Part shown: one piece after another, positions 7,108 through 29,009 of the stretch | Layout of the letters: each line of letters begins with the position of its first letter | Numbering within the stretch: position 1 is the first letter of the stretch | Virus record (IMG/VR): IMGVR_UViG_3300025118_000006 | Coordinates: 14,500-78,499 of that record | Reading direction: 5' to 3' (one strand) | DNA length: 64,000 nt | From: a virus | Translations under genes and position numbers: made by a program | The notes under the pieces: generated by a model | What the model was told of the DNA's origin: nothing | The model's database searches: none | What the model saw: the letters and a program-made list of their open reading frames with translations, nothing else

Positions 7108-10100
7108 ATGGCAACTGTAATACGGGCCTCTGTATCAACAACTAGCTCTAAAGAGGGTGTTCAGACTCTCGCAGCACTGAAGGCGCTTACGGTACGAACA
7201 GATAAAGAAGTTCGACTCGTGGAGGATTCTGGAATCCAGTATCGGTGGGATGCTGACAGCACGGCTACGTCGGAAGATTTCGACATCGTGCGCCCAACGG
7301 ATGTTGGTTCGGACGCATCCGCTGGACGCTGGCTCCGTATTTTCGGTAACATTCAAAGCGTAGCAGGCAGGACTGGGGTTATCACGCTTGCTTCAAGCGA
7401 CCTCACAGACTGGGGTGCGGCTACACCCCTGGCGTTTAGAACCACCACGAACGAAAACAAGATCACCTTTGGCGCGGCTGATATCGGAATTGCCAACAAG
7501 GACGGTACCGATCTGGTTTTCTTCTCAGACGCTGCGGGCGAGATATTGTTCGCGGACGGTGGGCGAACCGGAAACGTCAAGATGGCCATTGACATGGACG
7601 CTGGCGGCGTCTCCATCGGGAACAATGTTCACAGCAACACACCGCCAACGAGCGGCCTCTACGTCGAAGGCAGCGTTGGTGTTGGCGTAGCACCAAAGAC
7701 TCAGCTATCGGTTGAGGGCGCGGTTACCATCAAGGAGCAGGCGGCGGCTGATTCAGACACAGCCGCCTACGGGCAGTTGTGGGTCAAGACAGCTACACCG
7801 AATGAATTGTATTTCACCACAGACGCGGGAAATGACATTCAGATCACCACTGGCTCGTCGATAGTCGCTGCGAGCGGTGGGTCCACTGCGGCAGATGACA
7901 TTACAGCCGGTGATGCGGCGGTAAGTGTTGCGACAAGCAGCGGTGCTGTCGTTATTGACTCCAACGCGAGCACTGTGACAGTAGACGGCCACACTGGCGT
8001 GACCGTGACTTCGTCGAATTCGGGAGAGGTTGATATAACCTCGGCTGCGAACGTAGACATCAACGCTACGACCGGGGTCACGATAGACGGAACAACCGTT
8101 TCTATCGACGGGACCGATACGACTAACCTTACGATGACCGCTAACAGCAGTAGCGCCAAGGCGTTGACCATTGACGCTGTAAATTCCGGTTCAGGGGTCG
8201 CGAGCATTTCGTTGGGAACCACGAGCGGAACGGCGATCAGTATTGGACATTCAACCTCCGAAACGACCGTCAACGACAACCTGACCGTGACCGGTAATTT
8301 GACCGTTGACGGAACGACCACGACGATCAACTCAACCACGCTTACCGTAGACGACAAGGTAGTCGTTATTGCGTCCGGCGCTGCGGATTCCGCTGCTGCT
8401 GATGGTGCAGGTATCTCGGTTGACGGCGCGAGCGCCACGATACTTTATGACCACACTGGCACTCAATGGGAAATGAACAAGCCCCTTGAGATCACTGGCA
8501 CGTTAGCCACGACAGGTGACGTGACTTTCGGTGTGGACGATACGGGCGTAGACGTGCGTATGTTTAGCGCGACAGCTTCCGAGGGTGTGCTCTATGACGC
8601 CTCCGAGGACGAGCTTGCTTTGTTACTCACAACCAAGCTGAAGTTTCATGATGTAGGTGGTGGCGAGGAAATTTTTGCTTCAGCAGACGGACACCTTGAG
8701 GTGAACGCTGGTACGACGCTGGACATGACTGCGCCGACAGTGGATATGAACGCCTCAACAGCAGTAACTATTGACGGACCAGCAGTGACAGTTGCCGACA
8801 GTGCTGCTGGTAAGCCAGTGCTTACCTTAAAAACAACGCACACAACCAAGACATCTTCAAGTGAATTACAGTTCTTGAAAGACGCTGCTGATACAGAAGA
8901 CGGCGAGGTTCTGGGTCAGATCACATTCTATGGCGAAGATGAAGGAAATAATAATACACAGTTTGCCGGCATTGTAGCGTCGATTAGTGAATCCGACGAA
9001 ACTGACGAAGCAGGCAAATTAGAGCTTCAGGTTGCTGAGAGCGATGGTACAAATACAGCTATGACGACCGGCTTAACCCTAGAGGGTGAGCACGCAACTG
9101 ATGGTCAGATTGACGTAACAATCGCTGCCGGTGCAGCATCCACAACAACAGTTGCCGGTGACTTATCAGTTACCACCGACCTTACAGTTAACGGAGATGG
9201 AACATTCCATAACGCAAGTAGCAACTGTTTAATTTCGTTAGAGGCATTATCAGGAGCAAACTCTGCAATAGAATTTAGAGAAGGAAGCCTCTATTGGCAA
9301 ATGGGTCATCGAGGAAGCAATAACGCCTTCTACCTTAGAGATGCTCTTTCGACTACAGGCGACGTTATACAAATTGAAGAAAATGCTGGTGACAATCTCA
9401 TATATGGTAAAGCCGGATCTCTTTTGGGTATCAATACAGATGCCCCAACACACACTCTTACTGTAGCCGGAACATCTTTGATTACAGGCGACGCAACATT
9501 CGGCGTTGATGATACTGGAGTAGACGTAAGGCTCTTTAGTGCCACCGCAAGCGAAGGTGTGCTCTACGACGCATCCGAAGACGAGCTTGCCCTGCTTCTT
9601 ACTACGAAGCTCAAGTTCCACGACGTTGGTGGTGGTGAAGAAATCTTTGCGTCTGCTAACGGACACCTTGAGGTGAACGCTGGGACAACGCTGGATATGA
9701 CAGCGCCAACGGTTGACATCAACGCATCTACAACACTGACCATTGATTCGCCGAGCGTAGTAATCTCTAGCTCTACAGATGACAAGCCGCTGGTTGAGAT
9801 TGTGTCAACAAACGCTGGTGCGAACCCACCAACGCTTCTCTTGAATCATGCTAGCGCCTCTCCTGCTGACAACGATGAGATTGGCGAGATTGTCTTTAAC
9901 GGCAACGACGACGGCGGCTCGTCCACTATGATGGCGAAGATCGTAGCAACATCCCCGGATGTTTCTAATGGCTCTGAAGATGGTAAGATTGCGTTTAAGC
10001 TGCGTACCGCAGGGGCAGTATTGACGCCTGTTGAAATCGTAGGAGCAGGTTTAACGATTGGTTCTGCCACTGAAGCAGACTCTATGATTATCTTCGACGG

Positions 10101-10641
10101 TCACGCTCAAGACTACCGAATTGGTATTGACGACGGGACCGACACCTTAGAGATTGGGCACGGAACGGCGCATGGAACCAACACTGGGCTTACGATTAAC
10201 TCTTCGGGTGATGTAACAAAGATTGGTCAAGACACACCAAGTGATGCCCAGGTCCTTACATGGGACAACAGCAACACGAAGGTTGTTTGGTCTGATGCCT
10301 CAGGTGGTGGCGGTGCTCAAGAGAAAGCAATCACAATCCTCGCATCCGGCAACAGCCCACTAGAACTAACAACAAGCCACGGCGTTATCCTTGTGGACAC
10401 CAGTGCAGGCGCATATCAGGTAAACCTACCAAGCTCAGACTTAGCTGACGGGCAGGTTTGGCACATCAAAGATCAGGATGGAAATGCTTCTGCGAACAAT
10501 ATATCCATCGCGCTTGTAGACACAACAAACGACCGGATTGACGGGTCGACAGCCAACGTCGTCATTAACCAAGACTATGGCTCCGTCACTCTCACCCAAT
10601 ACGAGGTTTCGTCGGGCGTTTACCAATACTTCATCTTGTAG
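7108..10641 (+). CDS. long fibre-like virion protein (tail or head fibre) with internal duplication
   Basis: 1177 aa, T/S/G/D/A-rich beta repeats; 'NLTVTGNLTVDGTTTTINSTTLTVDD' fibre motif; C-terminal 'HGVILVDTSAGAYQVNLP...WHIKD..GNAS.NNI' module. Confidence 0.75.
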   Translation: MATVIRASVSTTSSKEGVQTLAALKALTVRTDKEVRLVEDSGIQYRWDADSTATSEDFDIVRPTDVGSDASAGRWLRIFGNIQSVAGRTGVITLASSDLTDWGAATPLAFRTTTNENKITFGAADIGIANKDGTDLVFFSDAAGEILFADGGRTGNVKMAIDMDAGGVSIGNNVHSNTPPTSGLYVEGSVGVGVAPKTQLSVEGAVTIKEQAAADSDTAAYGQLWVKTATPNELYFTTDAGNDIQITTGSSIVAASGGSTAADDITAGDAAVSVATSSGAVVIDSNASTVTVDGHTGVTVTSSNSGEVDITSAANVDINATTGVTIDGTTVSIDGTDTTNLTMTANSSSAKALTIDAVNSGSGVASISLGTTSGTAISIGHSTSETTVNDNLTVTGNLTVDGTTTTINSTTLTVDDKVVVIASGAADSAAADGAGISVDGASATILYDHTGTQWEMNKPLEITGTLATTGDVTFGVDDTGVDVRMFSATASEGVLYDASEDELALLLTTKLKFHDVGGGEEIFASADGHLEVNAGTTLDMTAPTVDMNASTAVTIDGPAVTVADSAAGKPVLTLKTTHTTKTSSSELQFLKDAADTEDGEVLGQITFYGEDEGNNNTQFAGIVASISESDETDEAGKLELQVAESDGTNTAMTTGLTLEGEHATDGQIDVTIAAGAASTTTVAGDLSVTTDLTVNGDGTFHNASSNCLISLEALSGANSAIEFREGSLYWQMGHRGSNNAFYLRDALSTTGDVIQIEENAGDNLIYGKAGSLLGINTDAPTHTLTVAGTSLITGDATFGVDDTGVDVRLFSATASEGVLYDASEDELALLLTTKLKFHDVGGGEEIFASANGHLEVNAGTTLDMTAPTVDINASTTLTIDSPSVVISSSTDDKPLVEIVSTNAGANPPTLLLNHASASPADNDEIGEIVFNGNDDGGSSTMMAKIVATSPDVSNGSEDGKIAFKLRTAGAVLTPVEIVGAGLTIGSATEADSMIIFDGHAQDYRIGIDDGTDTLEIGHGTAHGTNTGLTINSSGDVTKIGQDTPSDAQVLTWDNSNTKVVWSDASGGGGAQEKAITILASGNSPLELTTSHGVILVDTSAGAYQVNLPSSDLADGQVWHIKDQDGNASANNISIALVDTTNDRIDGSTANVVINQDYGSVTLTQYEVSSGVYQYFIL
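8512..9747 (+). repeat. ~265-bp direct repeat (8512-8775 and 9484-9747), in frame, offset 972 bp
   Basis: Near-identical ~88-aa segment TGDxTFGVDDTGVDVRxFSATASEGVLYDASEDELALLLTTKLKFHDVGGGEEIFASA...; differences mostly synonymous. Confidence 0.9.
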
Positions 10642-14796: not shown

Positions 14797-16413
14797 ATGG
14801 GTTGGTTAAAAAACATCGTTGCGCCAGACGTTATTGATCTGGAAAAAGCACGCAAAGCCGAGGTTGTGAACAAGTCAAAGGCTTGGAGCTTCGACCCAAA
14901 CGAGCTACGGACAGGTCTGTACGGCGGGCCTGAAGTAGCGGAGCACCAAGGTACGCTAGGGGTCAATTACAACACACTTATGGTTATGAGCCGGGTGCCC
15001 ATTATAGGTGCCATTATACAGCTTAGAACAAACCAGTTAGCTGAATTCGCGATGCCACAAATGTCGCGCTACGGCCTTGGATTTAAGATCGCGATGCGCG
15101 ACAAAAAAGCCAAGGCGACGACAGCAGCGGAAAATCAGATTAAGGAAATACAGACGCTCATACAGACATGTGGTGGCTACAAGTACGAACCCCAAGGTTT
15201 CGAGGGTTTCATGCGGAAGATTGTTCGAGATTCGCTCACCTATGATCAAGCGAACTTCGAGGTTGTTTACAACAAGGCCGGTAAGCCCGGAGCTTTCTGC
15301 GCTGTGGATGCGATGACAATCAGAAGAGCTATCCCAAAGGACGCCAAGCGCAAGGGCGGGGCAGCAGGTCTTGACAGCAACGATAAGGATGCTTTCGTTC
15401 AGGTTCTAGGCAATAAGCAGGTAGCTGAATTCGGAAGGCAGGAGATGGCTTGGGGGATTAGAAGACCCAGGACTTGGATGAGAGTAAACGGCTACGGCTA
15501 TCCAGAGTTGGAAGAGTCGATGAGGATCATAACAAACCTCTTGAATGCGGCTGAATACAACTCAAACAACTTCACTCATGGAGTTCACGCGAATTCGATT
15601 CTGACAGTGAAGTCTGGGATGTCGAAAGAGGTGTTTGCGGCTTTCAGGCGACAGTTTTACGCAATGGTTTCCGGGGTTCGCAATGCGAAGAGAACACCGA
15701 TTATCCAGCTTGACCCAGAGATGAAGGAAGAAATCTCAAACGTGTCAATGAGCCAATCGAACAAGGAAATGGAATACTCCAACTGGATGTCTTTCCTCCT
15801 TAAAGTCTTGTGTAGCGTGTACGGCCTGGACGCGGCAGAGCTAGGCTTCGTGTATGGCAACGAAGGGCAGGCGGCTTCACTCTCGCAAAAAGGGCCGGAG
15901 GAGCGAATTGTCGCGTCGAAGGAGCGTGGGTTGAGGCCGCTCGTTCGTGCCGTACAGGGATGGATGAATCAGTGGGTTGTTTACCCGGTAGACGAGGATT
16001 TTGAGATTCAATTCGTAGGTTTCGACGCTCACTCTGAATCAGAAAAGGTAGAGCTAGACACGAAGGCTGTAAAAGCGTTTAAAACCGTAAACGAAATCCG
16101 CGCAGAACACGACCTACCGCCACTCGAAGACAGCGTTGCTGACATGGTCTTAGATCCAACTTACGTGCAGTTTGCAACGGCGGGTGGAGAAGAAGAGGGC
16201 GGCGAGGAAGAAGGCGACTACGGGTCATATTTTGATGACTCTAAAGGCGACGAAGGCGAAGATGACGAGGAAAAGGGAGAAGAGGAAGTGCCCAGTGGCA
16301 AGCCGAAGAAGCCAGAGCCTCGAAAAAAAGAAGGCGGCAAAGGCGACTATAGTGACTCCTTTGAAGAGAAAACAGAAAAAGGGCTCCGAACGGTCACTAT
16401 CGAGGTGACCTAG
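14797..16413 (+). CDS. portal protein
   Basis: VRDSLTYDQANFE, GYGYPELE, N.F..G, KEMEYSNW..FL...CSVY..D..ELGF, SKERGLRPL, KTVNEIRA motifs (Twort/SPO1-type portal). Confidence 0.92.
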   Translation: MGWLKNIVAPDVIDLEKARKAEVVNKSKAWSFDPNELRTGLYGGPEVAEHQGTLGVNYNTLMVMSRVPIIGAIIQLRTNQLAEFAMPQMSRYGLGFKIAMRDKKAKATTAAENQIKEIQTLIQTCGGYKYEPQGFEGFMRKIVRDSLTYDQANFEVVYNKAGKPGAFCAVDAMTIRRAIPKDAKRKGGAAGLDSNDKDAFVQVLGNKQVAEFGRQEMAWGIRRPRTWMRVNGYGYPELEESMRIITNLLNAAEYNSNNFTHGVHANSILTVKSGMSKEVFAAFRRQFYAMVSGVRNAKRTPIIQLDPEMKEEISNVSMSQSNKEMEYSNWMSFLLKVLCSVYGLDAAELGFVYGNEGQAASLSQKGPEERIVASKERGLRPLVRAVQGWMNQWVVYPVDEDFEIQFVGFDAHSESEKVELDTKAVKAFKTVNEIRAEHDLPPLEDSVADMVLDPTYVQFATAGGEEEGGEEEGDYGSYFDDSKGDEGEDDEEKGEEEVPSGKPKKPEPRKKEGGKGDYSDSFEEKTEKGLRTVTIEVT

Positions 16414-16703
16414 TGAAAGTAATCGTAAAAGAATCCTTTTCAGGAGAGCTTGACAGTCGCCACGCGGTAGAAAAATTGGAACAGGCTATAAGCGAGTTCT
16501 CAGAACTTGCTGGGTTGGGGGTGGGTAATTCGTTCCAAAAGCACACTTGTGATGGCCACGAGGTTTTGGAAAAGGCCGTAAAGACACACGACCACCGAGT
16601 GGACGCTGTCGATGAGATGGTTGAGTTAATGCGTAAGGCTTATGAGAAGCGCATGAAGGCGATGGTCAAAGACATCGCGAAGCGTGTCAGCGATGGCGTC
16701 TAA
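16413..16703 (+). CDS. hypothetical head-associated protein
   Basis: Coupled to portal and MuF. Confidence 0.6.
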   Translation: MKVIVKESFSGELDSRHAVEKLEQAISEFSELAGLGVGNSFQKHTCDGHEVLEKAVKTHDHRVDAVDEMVELMRKAYEKRMKAMVKDIAKRVSDGV

Positions 16704-19183
16704 TGTCCTTACCACCAAAAATAGATGACATAGTATCCGCGCACCACGATGGGTTCCTCTACGATCTTTTTGGAGAAAGCCTCGGTCTTCCACTGGAAAG
16801 GGTCGCTGAGTTGCGAAGTATGGGGATACTTCCTGATATCCCGGTACCAATTTTAGCCCGTGCAGGGCTGGACGTATTGGCTGCTCGCCCGCTCATGATG
16901 GCCATGATGATTGGTGCCGCAAAGCAGTCGATGGAACCTGGGAGGCGAAAACAGGCAGACCGATGGCCCGCAAAGAAGTGGGCCAAGCAAATCATCAGAG
17001 ATGCCCCTTCGGTAAGTTCACCACCCCCGACTATCCCCTCGGTGACACCTATCGGTGGCGATACGCCTGACCTTCCACCACCACCTCCTCCTCCTCCGAC
17101 CGGATCGGGAGGTGGTGGGCCTAAACCACCGGACCCACCGGACTTTTTGACCGACCTACAGAGGCACTCTTGGACGCAAGCAAGGGAGCGTGCAGGATCG
17201 TTTGTTCGAGGGCTAGGTAACATTGTCACAGCAGAAGCAGAAACAACGCTTGCGGAAGTGTGGAACGGAGAGCAAATAGAGCGCGAGACAGACGCAGATA
17301 AGCGTGCAGAGGTTGTCGATATCATTCGGGAAGAGACGGCGGCAGCCACCGCCAACAACACGAAGTGGAGATCTAGTACAGCGCAAAAGCTCGCATCAAA
17401 CCTTGCACACAGGACTGGTGACTGGAGTCGCAATTGGGAGCGGATAGCGCGAACGGAGCTTCAGGGTGCGTACAATGAGGGCAGTGTGTTGGAGGCCATC
17501 GAATGGGACGGCCCAGACGCGCTCATAGCCAGAATACCTGAGCCAAGCGCGTGCGCTGATTGCCGACGTGTACACATGACACGAGATGGCAGGCCACGGG
17601 TTTTCAAGGCGAGCGACCTCATAAACAATGGTACAAATGTAGGCCGAAAACGCGCACAGTGGCAGGCTACTATCTGGCCCGTTCACCCGAATTGTAGATG
17701 CGACACGCAACACATCCCCGAGGGAATGGAGTTCGATGATGAGTGGGGGCTTGTATACAAGGCGTATTCATTCTCGCAGTTAGCGAACCTTGTAAAGGCC
17801 AAGGGCTATCTATACAAGGCAGGGCCTTTTATCGGTCCACGCGGTGGCAAGTGGGCTGACGCGAAGCATACGATAGCCTGGAAGGAAAAACAGACAACAA
17901 GGACTAAGGGGCATGAAATAGCAAGACTCCCGCCAGAGGTTCAATCAGAAATAGCAGGGGCGGTCACTTTTGTGACCCGCCTTTTTCCAGAATTGCAAGA
18001 TGTCCGCGTGGTGATTGCAGATCATGATCTTGGCCATTCTCACGCCACTAAGGACAGTAAAAAAATCAAGCTCAACCCCACAACTTGGCTGGACGTAAAT
18101 AAGCTAAAACAGCAACGGGATGAGGCGGCAGGGCTGGTGGTAGATGGGTCGATCAAGGGCATTATCGTACACGAGTTAGGCCATATACTGGCTGGCCGAA
18201 TACTCAACGCGCTTGGATCGAAAAAGTACAACGAAATAGCGCAAAAGCACTTAGGCGTACCGCAAGATGGCTTAGATCCGTGGGGAGAGCCTGTATTCAC
18301 CACGCTGTCTAACTCTGACATGCCAAGCGCATACGCTATGGATAACAGGAGCGAGTACGAGGCAGAAGCCTTTTCAGCAGCGGTATTTGGAAAAGCAGAA
18401 ACGAACCCCAAGTGGGCGGCAGGGGCTGTAAACAAGTCTAAAGCGTATTGGGCAGACATGCTCCACGCTTATCGAAATCTAAGCAAGTCATTAGCAAAAT
18501 CCGGTCCCTACATCGGCCCTCGCGGTGGTAAGTGGGCTGACGCCAAGCATACAATTGCGTGGAAGGAAAAGTCTAAGAGGCAGCTTAAAAGGGAGGCTTC
18601 GGAGAAGAGAAAGAAGGCGCGAGCGAGCGCAGAAGGGCCTGCGGTAGAGGCGTATAACAAGGCCGTTAAAGACCACAACGAACACGATGACGCTGGGTAT
18701 GACGCAAACGCTTCGGACATGGTCGATGTCGCGTACGGCGGGTACGCACCGGCAAAAATAGACGCCATGAAGGTTTGGGCCAAAAAGGTGGGGCTAGAGG
18801 TTGGCGAAACTGATTTTTCAGGTGGAGCATCGTATGGCAGCGCGTACATACAATTGAAAGTTCCAGGCATCGGCGCGGTGGGAGGATCAGGACGGTTGGA
18901 CCGGGCCGTTGTTGTGAGAATGTCGGATCACGGAAACATGGCGCGAGTTGGCGGGCGGCTGCAAACTGACACAAACATAGCGCCTGATTTTGGTTGGACT
19001 TTCATGAAAGGGATAGGGCACGCGATTGGTATCTTGCGCGAACGCTTTCAAGAGCACCTCGACAACGCAGACGACGACGATTATTTCGACCAAGACCCAG
19101 ATGGCGATGCAGAGCGCAAGCGAATGGAAGAGGCTATGCCACTTCTTGACAAGCTCGGAAAGCTGTACCGAAAACCCGGTTAA
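16703..19183 (+). CDS. MuF/SPP1 gp7-like head morphogenesis protein with two C-terminal cargo modules (zincin peptidase; RxSDH domain)
   Basis: RIARTE...AC.DC...PVHPNCRC MuF core; HELGH...SAYA...EYEAEAF; two GP[FY]IGPRGGKWADAKHTIAWKE leaders. Confidence 0.85.
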   Translation: MSLPPKIDDIVSAHHDGFLYDLFGESLGLPLERVAELRSMGILPDIPVPILARAGLDVLAARPLMMAMMIGAAKQSMEPGRRKQADRWPAKKWAKQIIRDAPSVSSPPPTIPSVTPIGGDTPDLPPPPPPPPTGSGGGGPKPPDPPDFLTDLQRHSWTQARERAGSFVRGLGNIVTAEAETTLAEVWNGEQIERETDADKRAEVVDIIREETAAATANNTKWRSSTAQKLASNLAHRTGDWSRNWERIARTELQGAYNEGSVLEAIEWDGPDALIARIPEPSACADCRRVHMTRDGRPRVFKASDLINNGTNVGRKRAQWQATIWPVHPNCRCDTQHIPEGMEFDDEWGLVYKAYSFSQLANLVKAKGYLYKAGPFIGPRGGKWADAKHTIAWKEKQTTRTKGHEIARLPPEVQSEIAGAVTFVTRLFPELQDVRVVIADHDLGHSHATKDSKKIKLNPTTWLDVNKLKQQRDEAAGLVVDGSIKGIIVHELGHILAGRILNALGSKKYNEIAQKHLGVPQDGLDPWGEPVFTTLSNSDMPSAYAMDNRSEYEAEAFSAAVFGKAETNPKWAAGAVNKSKAYWADMLHAYRNLSKSLAKSGPYIGPRGGKWADAKHTIAWKEKSKRQLKREASEKRKKARASAEGPAVEAYNKAVKDHNEHDDAGYDANASDMVDVAYGGYAPAKIDAMKVWAKKVGLEVGETDFSGGASYGSAYIQLKVPGIGAVGGSGRLDRAVVVRMSDHGNMARVGGRLQTDTNIAPDFGWTFMKGIGHAIGILRERFQEHLDNADDDDYFDQDPDGDAERKRMEEAMPLLDKLGKLYRKPG

Positions 19184-20123
19184 AAACACACTTGTTGAAC
19201 TGAAAGCCACTCCATAGTAATTTGAACTGAACAACTCGGAGCCCACAATGAAGACTTTTCAAAGCCTGAACGACATTTACAAGGCTGCAAAGAAGCCAAA
19301 GAAGGAAGAGAAGGAACCTGAAGAAGAGGTGTCCGAGGGGCAAATGTCCTTGTTTGACGGCCTAAAAAAGGCCGCAGACGAAGAAGAGGACGAGGACGAG
19401 AAGCGCGACAAGAAGCTGCAACAACGGCTCGACGAAGAGGCGGCTGGTGGCGAGGAAGAGTATAAGCGGATGAAAGAGGAAGAGGCTGAGAAGTCTTTCT
19501 CGGGCCTCGAAGGAATGGACATTGTCAAAAACATGGCCAAGGTCCAGGCCGAAATGAAGAGCGGGAAGTCCGCGAAAGAAGCTGTTCAGGCCGCATACCC
19601 GGATTACACCGAAGAGCAGGTAGAGATCTTTGTGAAGGACATGAAGAAAGGCTACGGCGTCTATCGTGCCAAGAAGGAAAAGAAGATGATTAAGTCAGAC
19701 AATGAGAACACACGGCTTGTGGTGAGCCTCACAAAAGGCGCATTGGAAGAGAGCGTTTCGATCATGCGAGGTGGTCCAAGTCGAGCAGACGTGGCTACAG
19801 CGTTGGCTTCATCGATTAAGAAGGGTTTCAACATCCCTGCGGAGTTCCCAGAGATGATGTTAGACGATCTCGACACATGCTCTAACGTAGCTCGCAAGAG
19901 CTTTGCTAATGCGTGCATGATGACCGCATCGGGATACCCAGAATTGCAGGTAGCTGGCGACATGGTCGGGTACCTTGAAGAGCTTACAGAAGGATAAATT
20001 ATGGCAGATTTTACGTCGCTAATTCATGGTGGGCTCAACGATCTCCGCAAGGGGAAGGGTCCGTTTATCGGACCCCGTGGCGGCAAGTGGGCCGATGCCA
20101 AGCATACAATTGCGTGGAAAGAG
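17822..20123 (+). repeat. three copies of the 22-aa motif GP[FY]IGPRGGKWADAKHTIAWKE (17822-17887, 18503-18568, 20058-20123) in two genes
   Basis: 21/22 aa identical with many synonymous nucleotide differences. Confidence 0.95.
19248..19997 (+). CDS. highly charged head-internal/scaffold-like protein
   Basis: E/K-rich; many x-K-[A/S/G] motifs; GGAG RBS. Confidence 0.6.
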   Translation: MKTFQSLNDIYKAAKKPKKEEKEPEEEVSEGQMSLFDGLKKAADEEEDEDEKRDKKLQQRLDEEAAGGEEEYKRMKEEEAEKSFSGLEGMDIVKNMAKVQAEMKSGKSAKEAVQAAYPDYTEEQVEIFVKDMKKGYGVYRAKKEKKMIKSDNENTRLVVSLTKGALEESVSIMRGGPSRADVATALASSIKKGFNIPAEFPEMMLDDLDTCSNVARKSFANACMMTASGYPELQVAGDMVGYLEELTEG

Positions 20124-23100
20124 GACGGTGGGAAGTCGGGTGGTAAAAAGTTCAAGCCGGACCCTGAGTATAAGTTAAGCTCGGAGGGGCATAACAAAAA
20201 AGACTACAACCGTGGCCTGAAGGAGGGGATGTCTAGCACGACAATCCCGCAAACGTCCGAAAAAGATAAGAAAGACACGAGCTATATGGCTGGCCTGAAA
20301 CAGGGCTTAATGGTGCAGATTAAGGCAAAAGACCACGCGAAAGCTCGCTATAAAATGCTGCGAGAAAGAGCAGACCGAGGTGAAAAGGGTGGGATTCCGA
20401 AGGGGTCTAGTGTCACCGAGAAAGTCTACATCGAGGCAAACACCGACGCCATCATGGAGAACATCCTGTCCGGCATGGAGCCGGACGGAAAGGGTGGCTA
20501 CAAGGGTGGCTATAGAAAAGCCTCCACCACCTTCTCGGACCTCGCGAAAGGAAAGCCCACAAAGTATCTCAAGCGTAAACGCGGCAAGGGTGGTCGCTAC
20601 GAGTACACCTACGCCGAAGACGGTAAACCTAAGAAGAAGAAGGGCCGCTTTGGGAACCTTCTAAGCACGTTGATGGGTGTCGTTAAGAAGCATCCATACG
20701 CGCTGATGGGTGAGTTTAAGTCGATGGTACGCGACTTCGATTTGGATGAGCTAATTGAGATGCGCTCCGAGATCAAAGACGCACTCGAAGCGAAACCTGA
20801 GAAGAAGGCTCCGGGCGAGAAGAAGGCTCCCAAGAAAGAAACCGCCGAAAAGAAAAAGCCAGCCCCAAAGAAAGGCCCGTCGGAGAAAGATATTCTTCGC
20901 CAGATGCTCAAGGCCATCGACAAGATGATCGCCAAGAAGCAGGAGGCGAACTCGAAGCTAAGTCTGAGGAGCTTGGTCGCGGGCTATCACAAGGGCGACA
21001 CTGAAGCGATTAAAGAGCTATACAAGAGAGCGCAGGAATTGCTTCCTGGCATTCGCATCTCAGACGCTCTTAACGTGGTCGCAACGGCGGCTGAAAACTA
21101 CGGGAAATTGCCGAAAGAATTTGTGGACGAGATGATTCGGGAGAACCGGGTCAAGGGCAAGAAGCCACCCGCAGCCGCTACAGAAGAGGCTCCGAAGCCC
21201 GCTGCCAAATACGAACGCTCAAAGTGGGCTGATTTTAAGAGCCAAATGGCCTCGTCTGACGGCGGCGCAAAATTAAACAGGCAATACGCGGAATTCGCGA
21301 AAAACGCACTGAAAGCCACGTCAAAGAAAGACCTAAAGCACGCCATCGAACAGGCGAAGGCAGCGAGTAGAAAGGATGACACGGTGGTCACTAGGACTGG
21401 TGTCGGGTATTCGACAGGAATCAAAGGCAAATTAAAGCGATTGCAAGCCCACTTGGAAAACAAGCTCAAGCTAGTGTCCAAGTATGGCGAGAGCGGGTTG
21501 GCCAAAGAAAGCGAAAAAAAGCAGAAAGAAAAGAAGCCAGTCACTCCGCAAGTTCCCGCGATGGAGGGCATGGCACCACTTGGAATAGCTCCGAAGCCCG
21601 CTGGCGAGGACATTGGCGTAGCCAAAGAGAGAGGCGACAACCGATACAAAAGCTCTGGCACCACCGACAAGGCCACGAATCACGATGAGATTATCGCCGC
21701 TGGCGGGGAATACCTCGGTCAAGGTGTGTACACGGATAAAGGTCCACCCAAGGCAAAGCGTGGGAAAAAGGGCAAGGTTGAGATCGTCCACCGTGGAGAA
21801 AAGAAACTGACCGATGGGACCATCTACGGCAAGGGTGACTGGGCCATCACTAAGCAACTTGAGTCGAAAAGGGTTACAGTGACAAACATAGCTACCGGGC
21901 ACTCCATCGGTGGCGAGATGTCCGGGCCACAGGCTTCGTACTTGATGGACCAAGTCATGGAATTGGAAGCGAGTGGAAAGCTGGACGGGTTCGACCCAGA
22001 CAATTTGTCCTCATCGTCATCAAAACCAGCGTTTGATGCTCTCAAGAAAGTCGCAGACGAAGTGCGCGAGGAAGGTAACTCTGGTATGCCTATCTGGAGC
22101 CGACGAAACAAGGCGAAACGAGAGGCTAACAGGCGGGCGAAGGTCGAGAAGCTCACCGAAGCAGCGTCCGTGAAAGGCGTCATCAGCCGCCCACTAGCCC
22201 TGGCTGATGTGAAAAGAAAAGAGCACAAGAGCGGAGAGGCCGCTCACAAGCGGGCAAGAAATTTTCAATCTACAGACGAATTCCGACTAAATCTTCAGCA
22301 GTCCATAGTAGACCGTTTCGAGGGCGAGCAGTACATGATTTCAACGGACGGCCACAGGATGGCGTTGATACCAGTATCGAATGACGTGAAACAAGGGGTG
22401 GGCTACGGCGAGGGTTCGCGAGATGCTCTGGGTGGAGGACGTGAATTTCCAAACTATAAGCAGGTCATACCGGATGACCGGAAGGCAAATGACACCCACG
22501 ACTTCGACGCCGAAACACTGCTGGCGCACGCGAAGCTGGGGGCATCGACGCCGGGTGTCATGGCGGGTTACGTTCATTTATACGCAGACGGTGGTGCCCA
22601 CAAAGCCCAAGCCAGTCATTCGGCTGTGATATCGCCTGAAGTTGACGAGAGGGAAAAGGGCATGGCGGGGATCGCTCTTGCGGAGTCCAAGCGCCCTTCC
22701 ACTGCGGGCGAGCCCACCGGAGGCGACAGCAAGAGCATCTCGGTGAACGCAAGGTATTTGGTAGACGCCCTTGAGGGCGCAAAAGGCTCAGTGTCCGTGT
22801 ATTACAAGGACAAAGGTAGCCAGATGATCATTGAAAGAGCCGATGGCGAGATACACGTCATCATGCCTGTGCGTGATGCTATGCCGAAGGACCACCCACA
22901 CAGGACGGAAGAGTGGGAGGTAAGCCCAGCCAGCAAGTCCTTCACCAACTTCTCCGATCTTTTCAAAGCGAAGCCCACCAAGTACAAGACTCGCAAGCGC
23001 GGAAAGGACGGAAGGTGGGTTTACACGTATGCTGAGAAGAAGGCACCGAAATCGCGGATGGGCGCGTTCTTGAACAAGATTGTCGGCTTTTTCTCTGAGC

Positions 23101-25319
23101 ACCACGACAAAGAGGATAACCTCATAGCGGCAGAAAAGAAGCTCATCTACGATCTGGAAACGCCACAGCTTGAGATGCTTAGGGATGCGATAAAGGCCGA
23201 ACTGGCCGCGATGGAAAAGAAGCCTGTTCCGGGGGCAAAGAAAAAGAAGCCCTCAAAGAAACGCTCGGGAGCACCCGTAACAGCAGAAAAGAAGGGGCCG
23301 TCACGCAAGCAAATTCTTCAGCAACTTCTTGCGAAGATCGATGGAGAGTTGGCTGCTCGCGCAATCGTGGGCTCCGCACCAACGGAGTCCGAAGACAACT
23401 TCGAGACGATGCCTGATGAGGAGTCCATCGGGCACCGTAGAGCCCGAGAAGTAATGGCCATGACCGTGAGCGATGCTTCACGGCTTGCGAGCGAAGAGCC
23501 AGGGACTCCGTTACGAGCCCCACACCACACAACATCGACACAAGGTTTACTCGGTGAACTTGACCAAGCGCAGGGGGGCATCCTATTTCTCGACCAGATC
23601 GAGGACTTCTCCCTTGAGTCGATCAAAAAGCTCGCAGTTGCGATGCGAGACAACCCCTATGTGATGATCGGGTACAGAACCACCGGCACCGGCACCGAAA
23701 CCGACAAGGTGAAGCTGAAGGCCCGCCTCGAAGCCCTGGGTGTTGATGTCAGCATGTGGGATGCCAATGAGGGCGTATCCGAAGACAACTTCGAGACGAT
23801 TCAAGAGCACTATAGCGCGAAGAAGCAGCTTCTCAGAGACGTGGACGTTGTTCGCGCCTCGAAACTTAATGAGCTTAACGTGCCGTCACACTCGGAAATT
23901 ATGGACCACGCGGTCAATCATTCCCATTATAGGCACGTTAAGCCAGCCTTTAAGAGTGCCAAGGAGAAAATTGACCGCCTAAATGAAGCTCTTGCGGCGC
24001 TAGGTGTAAGAGAGTGGCGGGGTTACAAAATAAAGCCGTTCGCCTCTAGCGACTTAGATGACTTAATCGCGATGAGGGATCAGATACGGCGCGATGAAGA
24101 AGCCCTAAGCGCGAGGGTGGGCTTGGTTTCGGTAGACCTTCCGTCGAATTCAATGATTGGCCGTGAGCATCCCGAGGTAGGGCCACAGATCAGGGAGGAA
24201 AGGGAGAAGTTAGAGGAGGTCAAATCGGCTATTGCAGCTTACAACAATGAGGGCACATCCGAAGACAACTTCGAGACGATGCCTGAAGCAACCACGCCCG
24301 TAAGCCAAGCGCATGAAGAGAATCGCCTGGACGCTGAGTTGCGAAGCAACAACACCAGCGAGCAGAAGGCCAACGAGAACATCTTCACGTATGCCGAAAA
24401 TGCCTTGGACCCGGACTCGCTTAAATTCGTCATCGAGTGGTCAGAAAGTGGTGCTGTAGAAGACGGCCAAGAGTTCGCATCAGTCAATGAGCTTAACGCC
24501 AAATTGCAGGAAATATCCGACCACCATAGGGAGCGGTACGGTCTTGGTGGTGGCTACTTTAAGACAAAGGTCTACGCTGAACTTGAGGGCAATCGGTTCT
24601 TTGGCAACCGTCTGGACGTTACATCGGGCGGCGAAGACGTAAATCTGGTAGATCACATGACTGCGATTTCTCATTATTACCAGTCCGACAGGGGTCGAGA
24701 ATATTGGTCGGCGGTTCAGGCTAACCAACGTGACAGGGGTGAAGAGACAGGCGAGCAGGCGCACGAGCGGGCGCAGTCGTATAAGAACATGGTTCAGCTA
24801 GTGCGGGACCATCAAAGAATTGCCAGTGGCTACGACATCGCAGGGGGCGACCCTCCTCAAGTAAAGTCTAAGAGAGAGTTAGACAAACTATCCGAAACAA
24901 GAAGAGCACAGGCCGATGCTTGGGAACAAGCAGAGCGAGAGGCCGAACAAAGAGCCGCCCAGGATGCTCACGCGGCTCGAACAGCAGGCTGGGAAGCCCC
25001 GCAGAGCAGGCGAGAGGTAACCAAGCGCGTTAAGCGAGCTATCGTTCAGGCGACTGGTTTGCCAGCGAAGGACGTTAGCGTTCGTGGTTCAACAGGGACC
25101 GCCTGGGGGTGGGTACGGATAAGCGGAAAAACGCAAGCAGCGCAAGCGGCTATTGATGCGTTTCAGGGAAGGACTTATTGGGGCAACATTTCTCCAGATG
25201 ACTGGGACAGGGCAACGCTAGAGTTTGAAATTGGTGCGGGCATTCACACTCCGGGCTCTATCTCGCGAGGCGGCTTCACTAACTTCTCAGACCTGCTCAA
25301 ATCAATAGGCCGTGCCTAA
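20001..25319 (+). CDS. large polyvalent/cargo polyprotein (beta-clamp-like, ComM/YifB-like fragment, LPD25-like domains)
   Basis: STDGHRMA...FPNYKQVIP...VNARYLVDAL...VIMPVR; PLRAPHHT...GILFLDQIEDF; VIEWSES...GYFKTK; repeated linkers and leaders. Confidence 0.75.
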   Translation: MADFTSLIHGGLNDLRKGKGPFIGPRGGKWADAKHTIAWKEDGGKSGGKKFKPDPEYKLSSEGHNKKDYNRGLKEGMSSTTIPQTSEKDKKDTSYMAGLKQGLMVQIKAKDHAKARYKMLRERADRGEKGGIPKGSSVTEKVYIEANTDAIMENILSGMEPDGKGGYKGGYRKASTTFSDLAKGKPTKYLKRKRGKGGRYEYTYAEDGKPKKKKGRFGNLLSTLMGVVKKHPYALMGEFKSMVRDFDLDELIEMRSEIKDALEAKPEKKAPGEKKAPKKETAEKKKPAPKKGPSEKDILRQMLKAIDKMIAKKQEANSKLSLRSLVAGYHKGDTEAIKELYKRAQELLPGIRISDALNVVATAAENYGKLPKEFVDEMIRENRVKGKKPPAAATEEAPKPAAKYERSKWADFKSQMASSDGGAKLNRQYAEFAKNALKATSKKDLKHAIEQAKAASRKDDTVVTRTGVGYSTGIKGKLKRLQAHLENKLKLVSKYGESGLAKESEKKQKEKKPVTPQVPAMEGMAPLGIAPKPAGEDIGVAKERGDNRYKSSGTTDKATNHDEIIAAGGEYLGQGVYTDKGPPKAKRGKKGKVEIVHRGEKKLTDGTIYGKGDWAITKQLESKRVTVTNIATGHSIGGEMSGPQASYLMDQVMELEASGKLDGFDPDNLSSSSSKPAFDALKKVADEVREEGNSGMPIWSRRNKAKREANRRAKVEKLTEAASVKGVISRPLALADVKRKEHKSGEAAHKRARNFQSTDEFRLNLQQSIVDRFEGEQYMISTDGHRMALIPVSNDVKQGVGYGEGSRDALGGGREFPNYKQVIPDDRKANDTHDFDAETLLAHAKLGASTPGVMAGYVHLYADGGAHKAQASHSAVISPEVDEREKGMAGIALAESKRPSTAGEPTGGDSKSISVNARYLVDALEGAKGSVSVYYKDKGSQMIIERADGEIHVIMPVRDAMPKDHPHRTEEWEVSPASKSFTNFSDLFKAKPTKYKTRKRGKDGRWVYTYAEKKAPKSRMGAFLNKIVGFFSEHHDKEDNLIAAEKKLIYDLETPQLEMLRDAIKAELAAMEKKPVPGAKKKKPSKKRSGAPVTAEKKGPSRKQILQQLLAKIDGELAARAIVGSAPTESEDNFETMPDEESIGHRRAREVMAMTVSDASRLASEEPGTPLRAPHHTTSTQGLLGELDQAQGGILFLDQIEDFSLESIKKLAVAMRDNPYVMIGYRTTGTGTETDKVKLKARLEALGVDVSMWDANEGVSEDNFETIQEHYSAKKQLLRDVDVVRASKLNELNVPSHSEIMDHAVNHSHYRHVKPAFKSAKEKIDRLNEALAALGVREWRGYKIKPFASSDLDDLIAMRDQIRRDEEALSARVGLVSVDLPSNSMIGREHPEVGPQIREEREKLEEVKSAIAAYNNEGTSEDNFETMPEATTPVSQAHEENRLDAELRSNNTSEQKANENIFTYAENALDPDSLKFVIEWSESGAVEDGQEFASVNELNAKLQEISDHHRERYGLGGGYFKTKVYAELEGNRFFGNRLDVTSGGEDVNLVDHMTAISHYYQSDRGREYWSAVQANQRDRGEETGEQAHERAQSYKNMVQLVRDHQRIASGYDIAGGDPPQVKSKRELDKLSETRRAQADAWEQAEREAEQRAAQDAHAARTAGWEAPQSRREVTKRVKRAIVQATGLPAKDVSVRGSTGTAWGWVRISGKTQAAQAAIDAFQGRTYWGNISPDDWDRATLEFEIGAGIHTPGSISRGGFTNFSDLLKSIGRA
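23388..24286 (+). repeat. three perfect 23-bp direct repeats TCCGAAGACAACTTCGAGACGAT (23388, 23778, 24258), in frame (SEDNFET)
   Basis: Identical at synonymous positions; spacing 390 and 480 bp. Confidence 0.95.
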
Positions 25320-25537
25320 TGCAGCCAGCCCAGCCCCCAAAGGATACAGCAATTGTGTGCGATTACTGCGGTTTTCGCTTGGGCGTCTGGGTTAAATCAC
25401 GCCTAAAGATACACGTTCGGAGTCGGCTTTTAGTGGTAAGAAAAAGTGGACAAGCTGAGTTGAGATGTCACAATTGTAAAAGCGACACTCTACTTCCTCT
25501 TTTTCTACCTCTGGAGCAGCCATGTTCATCTGGTTAA
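25319..25537 (+). CDS. small zinc-finger protein (Com-like CxxC...CxxC)
   Basis: CDYCG...ELRCHNCK. Confidence 0.55.
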   Translation: MQPAQPPKDTAIVCDYCGFRLGVWVKSRLKIHVRSRLLVVRKSGQAELRCHNCKSDTLLPLFLPLEQPCSSG

Positions 25538-25977
25538 ACGTACTTCTGACTATGATGTTCCTTCCGGTTGCGCTGTTGTTTGGTAAAATTAAGCGAGTCG
25601 GGCTCTGTAAGGACGCAGTAAACGATCAGGTAAACGAAGCGTTTCCCGTGTCGAAGTGGACCCCGTATTTAGATCTTGAACCACGAGGCTGGTTTAGGTG
25701 TTGGATGGAGAGGAATGGGATCGGTGGTATGGCGTGCCTCGGGTACGTGTTTATCCAACAAAGACACGAGTTAATTGTGTTCCATGAGTGCGTGCATGTG
25801 ATGCAGCAGAGCGCGGTGAGCCCTGCACTGATAGGTCTTACCTACCTTCTGGACATAATCGTGTTCCTTCCGTGGCGTGGATGGTTCAAGGAGGGAGAGG
25901 CTAAGAGGGTGTCCACGGTAGAGGTCGTAGCGTACCGGGTGACAGGGCAAGACGAGTGGTCTTCGGGACAAGATTAA
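25522..25977 (+). CDS. membrane-associated HExxH metallopeptidase-like protein
   Basis: LGYVF...LIVFHECVHVMQQ...Y...EVVAY. Confidence 0.6.
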   Translation: MFIWLNVLLTMMFLPVALLFGKIKRVGLCKDAVNDQVNEAFPVSKWTPYLDLEPRGWFRCWMERNGIGGMACLGYVFIQQRHELIVFHECVHVMQQSAVSPALIGLTYLLDIIVFLPWRGWFKEGEAKRVSTVEVVAYRVTGQDEWSSGQD

Positions 25978-26083: not shown

Positions 26084-26842
26084 ATGTACGAGAATAATAT
26101 CGACGTATTCAGCGCATGGACCCCGTTCGACGTTGTCGAAAAGGGTGAGTCCGAAAGCAGTCCTAGTGGTCGTATCTCCGGTGTTGTTTCAACTGAGACG
26201 GTAGACCAACAGGGCGAGCAGGTTGTACAGAAGGGCCTCGACTGGGACTATTTCCTGAGCAAGGGTTGGTTCAACTGGGAGCACGCGGCTGGGCCTGAAA
26301 ATGTTCTAGGGTACCCAGACAAGGTTGAACCCGTAGAAATCAACGGAACCCACGCAACTCGCGTAGAGGGCCGTCTCTTGATGAACAAGGCTAAGGCCAA
26401 AGAAATTTACAATACGGCGGTAAGTCTACAGAAGTCGGAATCAAACCGACGGCTTGGATTTTCCATCGAGGGTCAGGTGTTAGAGCGCGAAGGGAAGACG
26501 ATCAAAAAAGCTCGTATTCTCAATGTTGCGATAACTGCTCACCCGATTCATCCAGACGCACGTTTGGAGATCCTAGCGCAATCACTCCTCGCCCGCGCCG
26601 CCTCTGTCGGCTATCAAACCCCAGCCGGTGAGGGCGGCTCTATAGCACCTTTGGTCGCACAATCTCTGGAAGGCTCAGTTTCAACTGCCACCTTCGGGGC
26701 TCGTGGTCTTGAAGCGTATTTGAAGAGCTTGAAAGAGGAAGACCTGATTGCGCTGCGTATTCTAAAGAGCTTTCCAACGCTCAATTTTGGAGACGCACAT
26801 TCCATAGTAACAGACTTTTTACGAAAAAAGGGAGTCCTCTAA
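26084..26842 (+). CDS. prohead protease
   Basis: ISGVVSTETVDQQGEQVVQKGLDWDYF..GWFNWEH, LGFSIEG, NVAITAHP motifs (Twort/SPO1-type). Confidence 0.9.
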   Translation: MYENNIDVFSAWTPFDVVEKGESESSPSGRISGVVSTETVDQQGEQVVQKGLDWDYFLSKGWFNWEHAAGPENVLGYPDKVEPVEINGTHATRVEGRLLMNKAKAKEIYNTAVSLQKSESNRRLGFSIEGQVLEREGKTIKKARILNVAITAHPIHPDARLEILAQSLLARAASVGYQTPAGEGGSIAPLVAQSLEGSVSTATFGARGLEAYLKSLKEEDLIALRILKSFPTLNFGDAHSIVTDFLRKKGVL

Positions 26843-27578: not shown

Positions 27579-29009
27579 ATGCTTTCAATGCCCCAAGCAA
27601 ACGACCTAGTGTCGGTGAAGGACTTGCATGAGCTTAACAAAGCTCTCCGCAAGGCCACAGCGGCTGGCTACCAGACACCAGCCAGCCAAACACCAGACGG
27701 CAACACCACCTTTAGCCCACTGGTGCCTCAATCTATTGAGGCGACTCTCGCTTCAAAAACTTTCACTATGGACGAACTCGTTCTGTGGAAAATGCTGCCT
27801 AAACGCGCAGTTTCTCAAACCGTTCATGAGTACACCGTTGTAAATGAGCATGGTGGAGATATGGACCCATTCTTCGTGGAAGGTGGTGGTGGATATGAAT
27901 CCCTCAGCACTTACGAAAGAAAGAGTCTGCGAATCAAGTACCTCATGGAAAAGCGAGAGGTTACTGACGTGGCCTCTATGGTCGGAATCATCGGCAATAA
28001 CGCAAACGCTATTGCTGAAGCCACCGAGCGTGGAACCATCTCTCTTTTGAGCAAGTTGGAGAAGCAGCTTTTTATCGCTGACTCCAGCATCAACCCACTT
28101 GCATTCGATGGTATCGATAAGCAGATGGCTGATGGCGCTCCTAACAATGTCAGCAACCTTGCTGGTGATGACCTTACTCCAATGAAGTTGCAGGAAATCC
28201 TGTCTGGCTCCTATGCCGAGCCAAACTTCGGTAAGCCATCCGTAGTTCTCGTTGAGCCTCGCGTACACGCGCAGCTTATTGAGCAGGCTACTGCTTATGG
28301 TCGCCACGACATGATGGGCACGGGACAGGGAACAATGACCTTCGGTCGTTCCGACCTCCGCATCTCGGTGCCTTACGGTACTGGTTCCGTACCTGTAGTT
28401 GGTTGCCCGTTCTTGTACCCAGAAGGTGCACCGAACGCAGCCGCTGTTGGTACTGCACCGACAGCACCTTCTGCTTTCAACACCCCTACCGTTGCAACTC
28501 ACGCTTCTTCCCTGTTCCTCTCCGGCGATGCCGGAACTTACTACTACCACGCGGTAGCAGTAGGACAGGGCGGTAAGTCAGCACCGATTGTGTCGGCTGC
28601 TATAACAGTAGCTGCTGGTGAGCGAGTATCCGTTGGTATTAACGATGACGCCCTTGCTACACCAGTAAGCGGCTCCGAGAACACTGCAAGTATCTTGTAC
28701 TACAAGATTTATCGCAGCACGACCGGCGTCCACGCTGATGCAAAGTGGGCCTTCAACGTCAAGAAAGCGGATACCAGTAGTGACACCGCATTCAACGATG
28801 ACAACCTTCACCGCCCTGGCATGTCCAAGGCGTATGCTCTTCAGATGACTCCAGATGTAATCGAGTGGGTAAAACTTCTCGACTTCATCCGTCGTCCTCT
28901 TGCAGAGGTGAAGACCACTAAACCATTCTTGCTCATGCTCTTTGGTGCGCTAAACATCAAAGTTCCGACCAAGAACTGGCTTATCCGTAACATCAAGACT
29001 AATCCTTGA
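27579..29009 (+). CDS. major capsid protein
   Basis: Propeptide then K|ATAAGYQTP; QSIE..L; HEY; LE..LF.ADS.I.PL.FDG; Ig-like insertion; C-terminal LFGAL.IK.P.K...IRNI; terminator follows. Confidence 0.9.
   Translation: MLSMPQANDLVSVKDLHELNKALRKATAAGYQTPASQTPDGNTTFSPLVPQSIEATLASKTFTMDELVLWKMLPKRAVSQTVHEYTVVNEHGGDMDPFFVEGGGGYESLSTYERKSLRIKYLMEKREVTDVASMVGIIGNNANAIAEATERGTISLLSKLEKQLFIADSSINPLAFDGIDKQMADGAPNNVSNLAGDDLTPMKLQEILSGSYAEPNFGKPSVVLVEPRVHAQLIEQATAYGRHDMMGTGQGTMTFGRSDLRISVPYGTGSVPVVGCPFLYPEGAPNAAAVGTAPTAPSAFNTPTVATHASSLFLSGDAGTYYYHAVAVGQGGKSAPIVSAAITVAAGERVSVGINDDALATPVSGSENTASILYYKIYRSTTGVHADAKWAFNVKKADTSSDTAFNDDNLHRPGMSKAYALQMTPDVIEWVKLLDFIRRPLAEVKTTKPFLLMLFGALNIKVPTKNWLIRNIKTNP

Follow-up and report, generated by a model that had tools for sequence, protein, structure and literature searches.

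Predicted lysine cleavage sites and conserved leader peptides at the cassette junctions of head-cargo proteins in an uncultured Herelleviridae-type phage

The window is a stretch of viral DNA of 64,000 nucleotides (nt), bases 14500-78499 of the 78.5-kb IMG/VR virus record IMGVR_UViG_3300025118_000006 (CheckV completeness 54%). Two proteins encoded in its head module, an 826-amino-acid (aa) fusion with a MuF-like minor head protein core and a 1772-aa protein, are by their sequence features phage-type polyvalent head-cargo proteins made up of exchangeable cassettes with a two-part junction. The first part of the junction is a short, weakly amphipathic, acidic stretch that ends in hydrophobic-x-Lys, is followed by Ala, Gly, or Ser, and would be a protease cut site. 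The second part, right after the site, is leader 1 or a leader 2 of the HKYxRR..GxYxY type, and would form the new N-terminus of the freed cargo. Cutting of the junctions by the Herelleviridae-type prohead serine protease encoded at 26084 is probable, with appreciable room for doubt.

Leader and linker repeats in the window

Leader 1 is a 22-aa peptide, GP[FY]IGPRGGKW...WKE, that is present in three copies. Leader 2, KPTKY..RKRGK.GR..YTYAE, is present in two. Linkers of the form [ST][TN]FSDLxK occur three times in the 1772-aa protein and end at aa 183, 989, and 1767, the last of these five residues before the C-terminus. Each leader or linker copy in the 826-aa and 1772-aa proteins stands at a hydrophobic-x-K/[AGS] site, where the slash marks the predicted cut. 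All linker and leader motifs quoted in an earlier, sequence-only reading of this DNA were located in their places by translation, self-comparison, and coordinates. The leader-core pattern has three matches in the 78.5-kb record, and its reversed control has 0.

Copies of leader 1 are identical or one residue apart as peptides when compared in pairs. At the DNA level, 11-14 of 66 nt (17-21%) differ, nearly all at synonymous third positions. Because the nucleotide differences are almost all synonymous, leader 1 is conserved as a peptide and not as DNA, a pattern that indicates selection at the peptide level.

No Pfam or PHROG model covered either leader in scans with both databases. An ESM Atlas look-up of the leader gave no usable match, and a full-text search found the motif strings in no searchable paper. 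AlphaFold2 models of the 42-aa linker plus leader, made with 31 sequences, had a predicted local distance difference test score (pLDDT) of 60, with helix in the linker only and a leader without a confident fold.

The sequence-only reading also held that the leaders precede unrelated cargo. This applies in the wider family, where leaders stand between unrelated domains, but not to leader 2 in the window: each of its two copies is followed by a homologous basic helical module of ~120 aa, as found by self-comparison.

Cassette boundaries in relatives

Comparison with relatives indicates that the junctions delimit the cassettes that were gained, lost, or swapped. That the motifs bound variable domains, as the sequence-only reading expected, held in five independent comparisons. 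The close relative P0006 matches the window MuF fusion through the end of leader 1, has a ParB-like domain in place of the zincin-like one, and matches again from the next linker. In the same protein, a 41-aa mini-domain is inserted between two K sites of MuF linker 1. Compared with its counterpart in genome G001, the MuF-like protein of genome G004 has a 161-aa insertion that runs from the leader right after DLRK/ to GLKK/. Likewise, G004_1209 has one whole extra module (pre-sequence, leader, and cargo) relative to G001_990. In genome G009, whose major capsid protein (MCP) is 47% identical to that of the window, MuF is a stand-alone protein of 357 aa that stops where the first linker of the window starts. 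Another protein of this genome, G009_1346, ends just past a linker whose counterpart in the window is followed by the next leader-2 module. It is 46% identical to aa 560-968 of the 1772-aa protein, including the clamp-like region. A related-locus search with the entire 1772-aa protein returned no relative.

These exchanges bear on which enzyme would cut the junctions. Autoprocessing of polyvalent proteins by zincins was proposed by Iyer et al. (2017; PMC5512222), and the MuF fusion carries a zincin-like metallopeptidase domain with an HELGH motif that might act on the junctions in place of the prohead protease. The domain is, however, swappable: P0006 carries the ParB-like domain instead and the G009 MuF protein has no zincin, while the junctions persist. 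Moreover, most of the leader-bearing proteins scanned show no peptidase domain. Every record that is complete enough does have the prohead protease and MCP type. As the zincin is cargo that can itself be exchanged, it was rejected as the enzyme that processes junctions in general; we regard cutting of the junctions by it as improbable.

A different reading takes the repeats as DNA-level recombination joints for cassette shuffling, without function in the protein. The cassette gains and losses do map to the repeats, and another repeat of the 1772-aa protein, SEDNFET, is identical in DNA in all three copies. Leader 1 contradicts this reading through its synonymous divergence, since its copies in the window vary at the DNA level while the peptide stays nearly constant. 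Copies in G001, G002, and G004 vary at pattern-free nucleotide positions, mostly third codon positions, and the leader peptide is much alike in phages with MCPs ~30% identical. A recombination joint is possible for SEDNFET; as an account of the repeats in general, the reading has almost no probability left to it.

SEDNFET is a third repeat, absent from the list of the sequence-only reading. Its 23-nt core, TCCGAAGACAACTTCGAGACGAT, is identical in three in-frame copies at 23388-23410, 23778-23800, and 24258-24280 (3 occurrences, 0 expected). The identity at the DNA level suggests a recent duplication or a DNA-level recombination joint. The core includes GAAGAC and GAGACG, which are sites of type IIS enzymes, and the copies flank an AAA+ fragment and a 160-aa segment.

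Spread of the junction grammar in metagenomic proteins

Hundreds of metagenomic proteins share the combination of linker and leader. When MuF residues 350-400 were used as the query, 55 further proteins were found, which are 454-1446 aa long and without exception metagenomic and unnamed. A profile made from 31 linker-plus-leader segments of the window and IMG/VR loci was then run against 1.84 billion cluster representatives. It matched 778 protein clusters at E<=1e-3 and 454 at E<=1e-10, all metagenomic, with lengths of 260-3135 aa and at most five copies per protein. Searches by tblastn with leader 1 and with leader 2 found no match among 50,697 records of cultured phages.

Among 185,579 species genomes scanned, only four leader copies were found, each in a metagenome-assembled genome (MAG). 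Two are from Myxococcales, one is from Lentisphaeria, and one is from Sedimentisphaerales (contigs L030-L033: BTVJ01000060.1, JBAZOO010000014.1, DATKWR010000218.1, and CP070713.1). An MCP homologue lies on the same contig as the leader in 3/3 MAGs checked. One of these contigs is a chromosome of 3.5 Mb, a hint that the phage may occur as a prophage and a clue to its host range. Among leader-bearing records, 10/13 have an MCP homologue, and the remaining three are fragments 17-41% complete.

In these proteins, the leaders separate unrelated Pfam domains, namely Topoisom_I, Zeta_toxin, RelA_SpoT, InPase, PolyA_pol, and GNAT. Cargo types between leaders also include ParB-like domains and zincins. 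Protein P0023, e.g., is ordered as MuF core, InPase, leader, zeta toxin, leader, and RelA/SpoT, and P0007 and P0008 have a third leader before a topoisomerase IB core. Leader 2 is widespread too, as HKYxRR..GxYxY after L-x-K-[AGS]. A C-terminal linker was considered as a general rule and rejected, as only a few proteins end in this way.

Leader 1 is near-invariant at ~20 of its 22 positions among the first 55 proteins. The leader is near-constant, yet the MCPs of leader-carrying phages are only 30-47% identical. Junctions were counted over 385 leader copies in 187 sequences, and in 330 of these copies a hydrophobic residue or Ala, any residue, and Lys stand 1-4 residues upstream. The 53 N-terminal leader copies are almost always preceded by a pre-sequence of 6-20 aa that ends in hydrophobic-x-K-[AG]. 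Such retained pre-sequences fit a propeptide and not a spacer.

A motif of the sliding-clamp-binding type, Q[LM]xLF, has 38 occurrences against 1.4 expected (0 for the reversed motif), spread over 34 of 190 proteins that nearly all carry a leader. The motif lies mostly in basic, Pro-rich spacers, sometimes immediately ahead of leader 1. In the window, the copy QMSLF of the 249-aa protein adjoins the gene with a beta-clamp-like module. Cargo may dock through this motif on host DnaN or on the clamp-like domain of the phage itself.

The junction lysine as a prohead-protease site

The head module of the window, i.e., MCP and protease, is of the Herelleviridae (SPO1/Twort-like) type, as judged by homology. 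Homologues of the protease are present in 761 cultured-phage records, nearly all of the Herelleviridae type. By tblastn, the MCP matches phages of Bacillus, Staphylococcus, Enterococcus, and Thermus (myoviruses for the first three), and a megablast of the head module against cultured phages gave no match. In the PDB, the MCP matches 9vel, which is SPO1 Gp6.1 (1.2e-20), and 5lii (4.5e-18), which we take to be the MCP of staphylococcal phage phi812. The 439-aa chain of PDB 9row equals the 463-aa chain of 5lii minus the first 24 residues and starts directly after ..VK/. In SPO1 Gp6.1, ALNK/A aligns with ALRK/A of the window MCP (residues 22-26), and similarity of this MCP to its relatives begins at residue 23. 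From these alignments, the MCP propeptide of the window phage would be cut after Lys.

The sequence-only reading took K/[AGS] for a prohead-protease site, and the signature is indeed common to the classic substrates of such a protease (MCP, portal, scaffold, and the protease itself) in the window phage and its relatives. In the relatives, it is found at the MCP propeptide boundary (..LAELRK/A), at the N-termini of the scaffold (LDELLK/A) and portal (LQSLRK/A), and in the C-terminal part of the protease (VLAK/S). A position-specific scoring matrix (PSSM) for P10-P1', built from 329 leader-1 junctions of other proteins, was used to score every Lys position. The top 8 sites of the window all lie in the head module and include MCP K25 and portal K43. 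Portal, protease, scaffold, and MCP hold 8/20 of the top sites in the window (p=2e-4) and 10/30 in the complete genome G001 (p=5e-6). The MuF fusion, the 249-aa protein, the protease, and the scaffold-like protein are each enriched in hydrophobic-x-K-[AGS] sites relative to shuffles; the scaffold-like protein has 9 against 1.1 expected (p<0.002). Because the same signature stands at the MCP, the portal, the C-terminal region of the protease, and the scaffold, the junction Lys is most likely a cut site of the protease at 26084.

At its start, the C-terminal part of this protease repeats the cut site of the MCP together with the mature N-terminus. The window MCP reads ALRK/A..GYQTPA, and the protease reads LLAR/A..GYQTPA. 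The copy co-varies with the MCP in each lineage: it is of the GYQTPA type in the window and of the AGS.V.DPG..GFPLRTESLE type in relatives. It is possibly a way for the protease to co-assemble and then release itself.

The host Prp protease cuts the capsid and scaffold proteins of staphylococcal phage 80alpha. A Prp-like host enzyme might in the same way cut after Lys at the junctions, with the phage protease only degrading the scaffold. The site is short and simple, and nothing more specific favors such an enzyme. The phage itself, however, encodes a protease that contains a copy of the MCP site, and the signature is common to the head proteins of phages from MAGs of different phyla. Cutting by a host protease is therefore given very little probability.

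Several observations count against a cut or for a further alternative, in which linker and leader form an uncut inter-domain element, e.g., a repeated binder of DNA, the capsid interior, or a host factor. The proteins would then be whole in the virion, and the likeness to the MCP site would be a by-product of a helix-ending Leu-x-Lys-Ala. All leader-bearing members are uncultured, and cut, packaging, and injection are inferred from sequence. Hydrophobic-x-K-[AGS] is no rarer than expected inside cargo domains across the family (observed/expected ratio 1.42, against 1.29 for the reversed motif), so that this signature of protease avoidance is missing; some interior sites may, however, be leader-2-type or leaderless junctions, and the ratio then says little about avoidance. 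Since there is no depletion, stray sites carry no sign of counter-selection, and the four-residue motif alone cannot define the site. No Lys stands within the four preceding residues in 32/385 leader copies (~8%), so a leader can occur without a site. Information content upstream of P3 is low in the junction alignment, and the leader is far better conserved than the linker. The predicted site of the window protease itself has Arg, not Lys, at P1. Some polyvalent proteins, e.g., the N4 virion RNA polymerase, are packaged uncut (PMC5512222).

Against the uncut element, a matrix trained on junctions finds the sites of MCP, portal, scaffold, and protease in two genomes. N-terminal leaders nearly always keep their short pre-sequence, which a spacer would not need, and one inserted cassette has K sites at both ends. 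Weighed together, these points make an uncut element unlikely, and processing of the junctions by the prohead protease stays the favored reading.

Proposed processing and role of the leader

The polyvalent proteins would probably be loaded into the capsid, cut apart in the prohead, and injected. The 826-aa protein would yield the MuF core, a zincin-like enzyme, and a domain of unknown family. The 1772-aa protein would yield three large pieces, aa 18-183, 184-989, and 990-1767. Each released piece would begin with Ala, Gly, or Ser, followed by the leader. The count of about five released effectors in the sequence-only reading has to be revised, as the linker sites predict three large pieces per protein and six in all.

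The retained leader may serve as a tag for loading or ejection, or may bind an invariant partner such as DNA; this is a guess, and a tentative one. Recruitment of the protein to the scaffold by the linker, as first suggested, is not favored, because pre-sequences are as short as 6 residues and the conserved part is on the retained side. A broader proposal, which we consider doubtful at present, is that site and leader form a portable, self-sufficient code. A Herelleviridae-type prohead would take up any protein behind it, the prohead protease would set that protein free, and delivery would take place together with the DNA. The leader would bind an invariant partner (DNA or the host sliding clamp) and not a fast-evolving phage protein, and would hence be more tightly conserved than the MCP. 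To speak of a programmable delivery system is speculation.

If the junction code works as proposed, it provides a sequence rule for injected effectors, i.e., anti-defense enzymes and host-takeover factors, in a large uncultured phage clade: cargo is whatever follows the tag. About 780 clusters are already tagged in this way, and topoisomerase IB, zeta-toxin-like kinases, and RelA/SpoT are among their cargos. Polyvalent proteins would be polyproteins processed by the capsid maturation protease, a question that Iyer et al. left open. Capsid targeting in the style of T4 would be extended to HK97-fold heads of the Herelleviridae type. A short, portable tag and site would also be a practical handle to load foreign proteins into the heads of phages of laboratory strains.

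Features of the window

The window phage is a myovirus, in which TerL and a tail sheath were found. It has a portal-terminase packaging system; TerL, portal, MuF, protease, scaffold, and MCP are encoded on one strand, and the polyvalent genes adjoin the head genes. On the + strand, the head genes are ordered as portal, a 96-aa open reading frame (ORF), the 826-aa MuF-like fusion, the 249-aa acidic protein, the 1772-aa protein, a 151-aa membrane ORF, prohead protease, scaffold-like protein, and MCP (Table 1).

PHROG models of head-morphogenesis and minor head proteins match aa 225-346 of the MuF fusion at 1e-6 to 1e-5, and Pfam models did not recognize MuF at E 0.01. The pre-sequence of the 249-aa protein is MKTFQSLNDIYK/A (nt 19248-19283). 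It resembles what we take to be the capsid targeting sequence of T4 IPIII, MKTYQEFIAE/, with Lys replacing Glu at P1. The 151-aa ORF (25522-25977) separates the polyvalent gene from the protease. It is hydrophobic in a segment at the N-terminus, contains an HECVH motif of the HExxH type, and has no family match.

Table 1. Positions of head-module genes, predicted junction elements, and cargo regions in the window
Feature	Position (nt)	Strand	Evidence or remark
TerL	4983-6644	+	
1177-aa ORF between terminase and portal	7108-10641		no PHROG match; junction-type sites 0 observed vs 2.4 expected
Portal protein, 564 aa	14719-16413	+	PF04860 1.2e-16; phrog_12 2.6e-45
Portal junction-type site (predicted), ends K43	14818-14847	+	linker PSSM rank 5 of 1030 window Lys sites
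MuF-like minor head protein core, aa 1-353 of 826-aa protein	16703-17761	+	phrog_4728 1.1e-6, phrog_115 1.2e-5 (aa 225-346)
MuF linker 1, aa 354-373	17762-17821	+	three successive hydrophobic-x-K/A sites; PSSM 11.7, window rank 4
Leader 1 copy 1, MuF aa 374-395	17822-17887	+	
Cargo: zincin-like metallopeptidase, HELGH motif, aa 396-575	17888-18427	+	weak Peptidase_M48 match, E 0.0022, 18.3 bits, under cutoff
MuF linker 2, aa 576-600	18428-18502	+	ends LSK/SLAK/S
Leader 1 copy 2, MuF aa 601-622	18503-18568	+	
Cargo, MuF aa 623-826	18569-19183	+	no Pfam match at E 0.5
249-aa acidic protein	19248-19997	+	hydrophobic-x-K-[AGS] sites 6 vs 1.8 expected
249-aa protein pre-sequence (predicted), aa 1-12	19248-19283	+	ends IYK/A
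QMSLF motif in 249-aa protein, aa 32-36	19341-19355	+	
1772-aa protein, full gene	20001-25319	+	
N-terminal pre-sequence (predicted), aa 1-17	20001-20051	+	ends DLRK/G; window-best PSSM score, 12.2
Leader 1 copy 3, aa 20-41	20058-20123	+	
Cargo A, small domain, aa 42-170	20124-20510	+	no Pfam match
Linker (aa 171-183) and leader 2 copy 1 (aa 184-206)	20511-20618	+	linker ends FSDLAK/G
Cargo B: basic helical module (aa 207-330), long stretch, beta-clamp domain-III-like module	20619-22928	+	
Beta-clamp domain-III-like module, aa 815-959	22443-22877	+	phrog_947 4.4e-8; weak DNA_pol3_beta_3 match
Linker (aa 977-989) and leader 2 copy 2 (aa 990-1012)	22929-23036	+	linker ends FSDLFK/A
Cargo C: second basic helical module, three SEDNFET repeats, AAA+ fragment, LPD25	23037-25262	+	
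AAA+ fragment	23469-23681	+	Mg_chelatase 24.9 bits (cutoff 20.3)
LPD25	24414-24683	+	29.2 bits, cutoff 27, domain scanned alone
C-terminal linker (aa 1755-1767), 5-residue tail, stop codon	25263-25319	+	linker ends FSDLLK/S
Prohead serine protease	26084-26842	+	phrog_1028 1.3e-45; catalytic part aa 1-168, conserved His67 and Ser127 (alignment)
Protease C-terminal part, start with copy of MCP cut site and mature N-terminus, aa 169-204	26588-26695	+	vs MCP aa 22-62 (nt 27642-27764), E 4e-5
Scaffold-like protein, 240 aa	26842-27564	+	26% identical to same-position G009 protein
MCP	27579-29009	+	phrog_752 3.7e-54
MCP propeptide (predicted), aa 1-25	27579-27653	+	ends ALRK/A; PSSM rank 8/1030

Comparison with known systems

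Polyvalent proteins and protease-processed head cargo of the T4 and phiKZ type are already known. MuF-fused polymorphic toxins of temperate phages, reportedly the subject of Jamet et al. in 2017, are said to consist of a MuF core with a variable C-terminal effector. Unlike a toxin of this kind, with one C-terminal toxin and a downstream immunity gene, the 826-aa fusion has two tandem cargos, each behind a junction, and no evident immunity gene. Pfam and PHROG scans found no immunity family, and the gene after MuF encodes the 249-aa acidic protein with a pre-sequence of its own. The clade is also almost absent from cellular genomes (4/185,579 species genomes), in contrast to the toxins of temperate phages.

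Phage-type polyvalent proteins (Iyer et al. 2017; PMC5512222) are multi-domain proteins of very large size whose genes lie beside those of portal and MuF, and their packaging and delivery together with the DNA are predicted. The proteins described here are alike in position and size and in mixing unrelated effectors (zincin, InPase, RelA/SpoT, ParB-like, and LPDs). In the window, the unrelated domains are the zincin-like and beta-clamp-like domains, the AAA+ fragment, and LPD25. LPD25 was listed as confined to conjugative elements (PMC5512222), whereas here it is found in a phage head gene. Iyer et al. ascribe processing mainly to in-built zincins, or else to an assemblin-like peptidase domain, which only a few polyvalent proteins have, and only at the C-terminus. 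Their text describes no signal at junctions and does not use the word "linker" (PMC5512222).

The internal proteins and Alt of phage T4 (PMC9026906) have short N-terminal peptides that end in hydrophobic-x-charged and are cut by the prohead protease, and diverse cargo is loaded and injected by this means. The T4 site is L/I-x-Glu, its protease gp21 belongs to another family, the capsid targeting sequence is removed, and each internal protein has a separate gene (PMC9026906). Here, in contrast, Lys stands at P1, sites are repeated internally, a conserved peptide lies on the retained side, and the protease homologues are of the Herelleviridae type. By analogy, the window system would work like the T4 system without being a member of it.

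The abstracts on phiKZ-like giant phages, e.g., SPN3US (PMC10052503, PMC7411985), report many head proteins, injected ones included, in which the prohead protease cuts a short consensus. Unlike the junctions of the window, these sites have Glu at P1 and are cut by a T4-related protease. Those abstracts mention neither a conserved tag after the cut site nor cassette exchange at junctions (PMC10052503, PMC7411985).

DarB of phage P1 (PMC9024508) is a giant, multi-domain anti-restriction protein of 250 kDa that is headed into the capsid by a short N-terminal signal, which is also active on a reporter. Unlike the window proteins, DarB has just one signal, at its N-terminus, lacks repeated junctions farther inside, and shows no sequence similarity to the leader. 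The window system would be functionally like those of T4, the phiKZ-like phages, and DarB, and it differs from all of them in its protease family, its P1 residue, its repeated internal sites, and its invariant retained tag.

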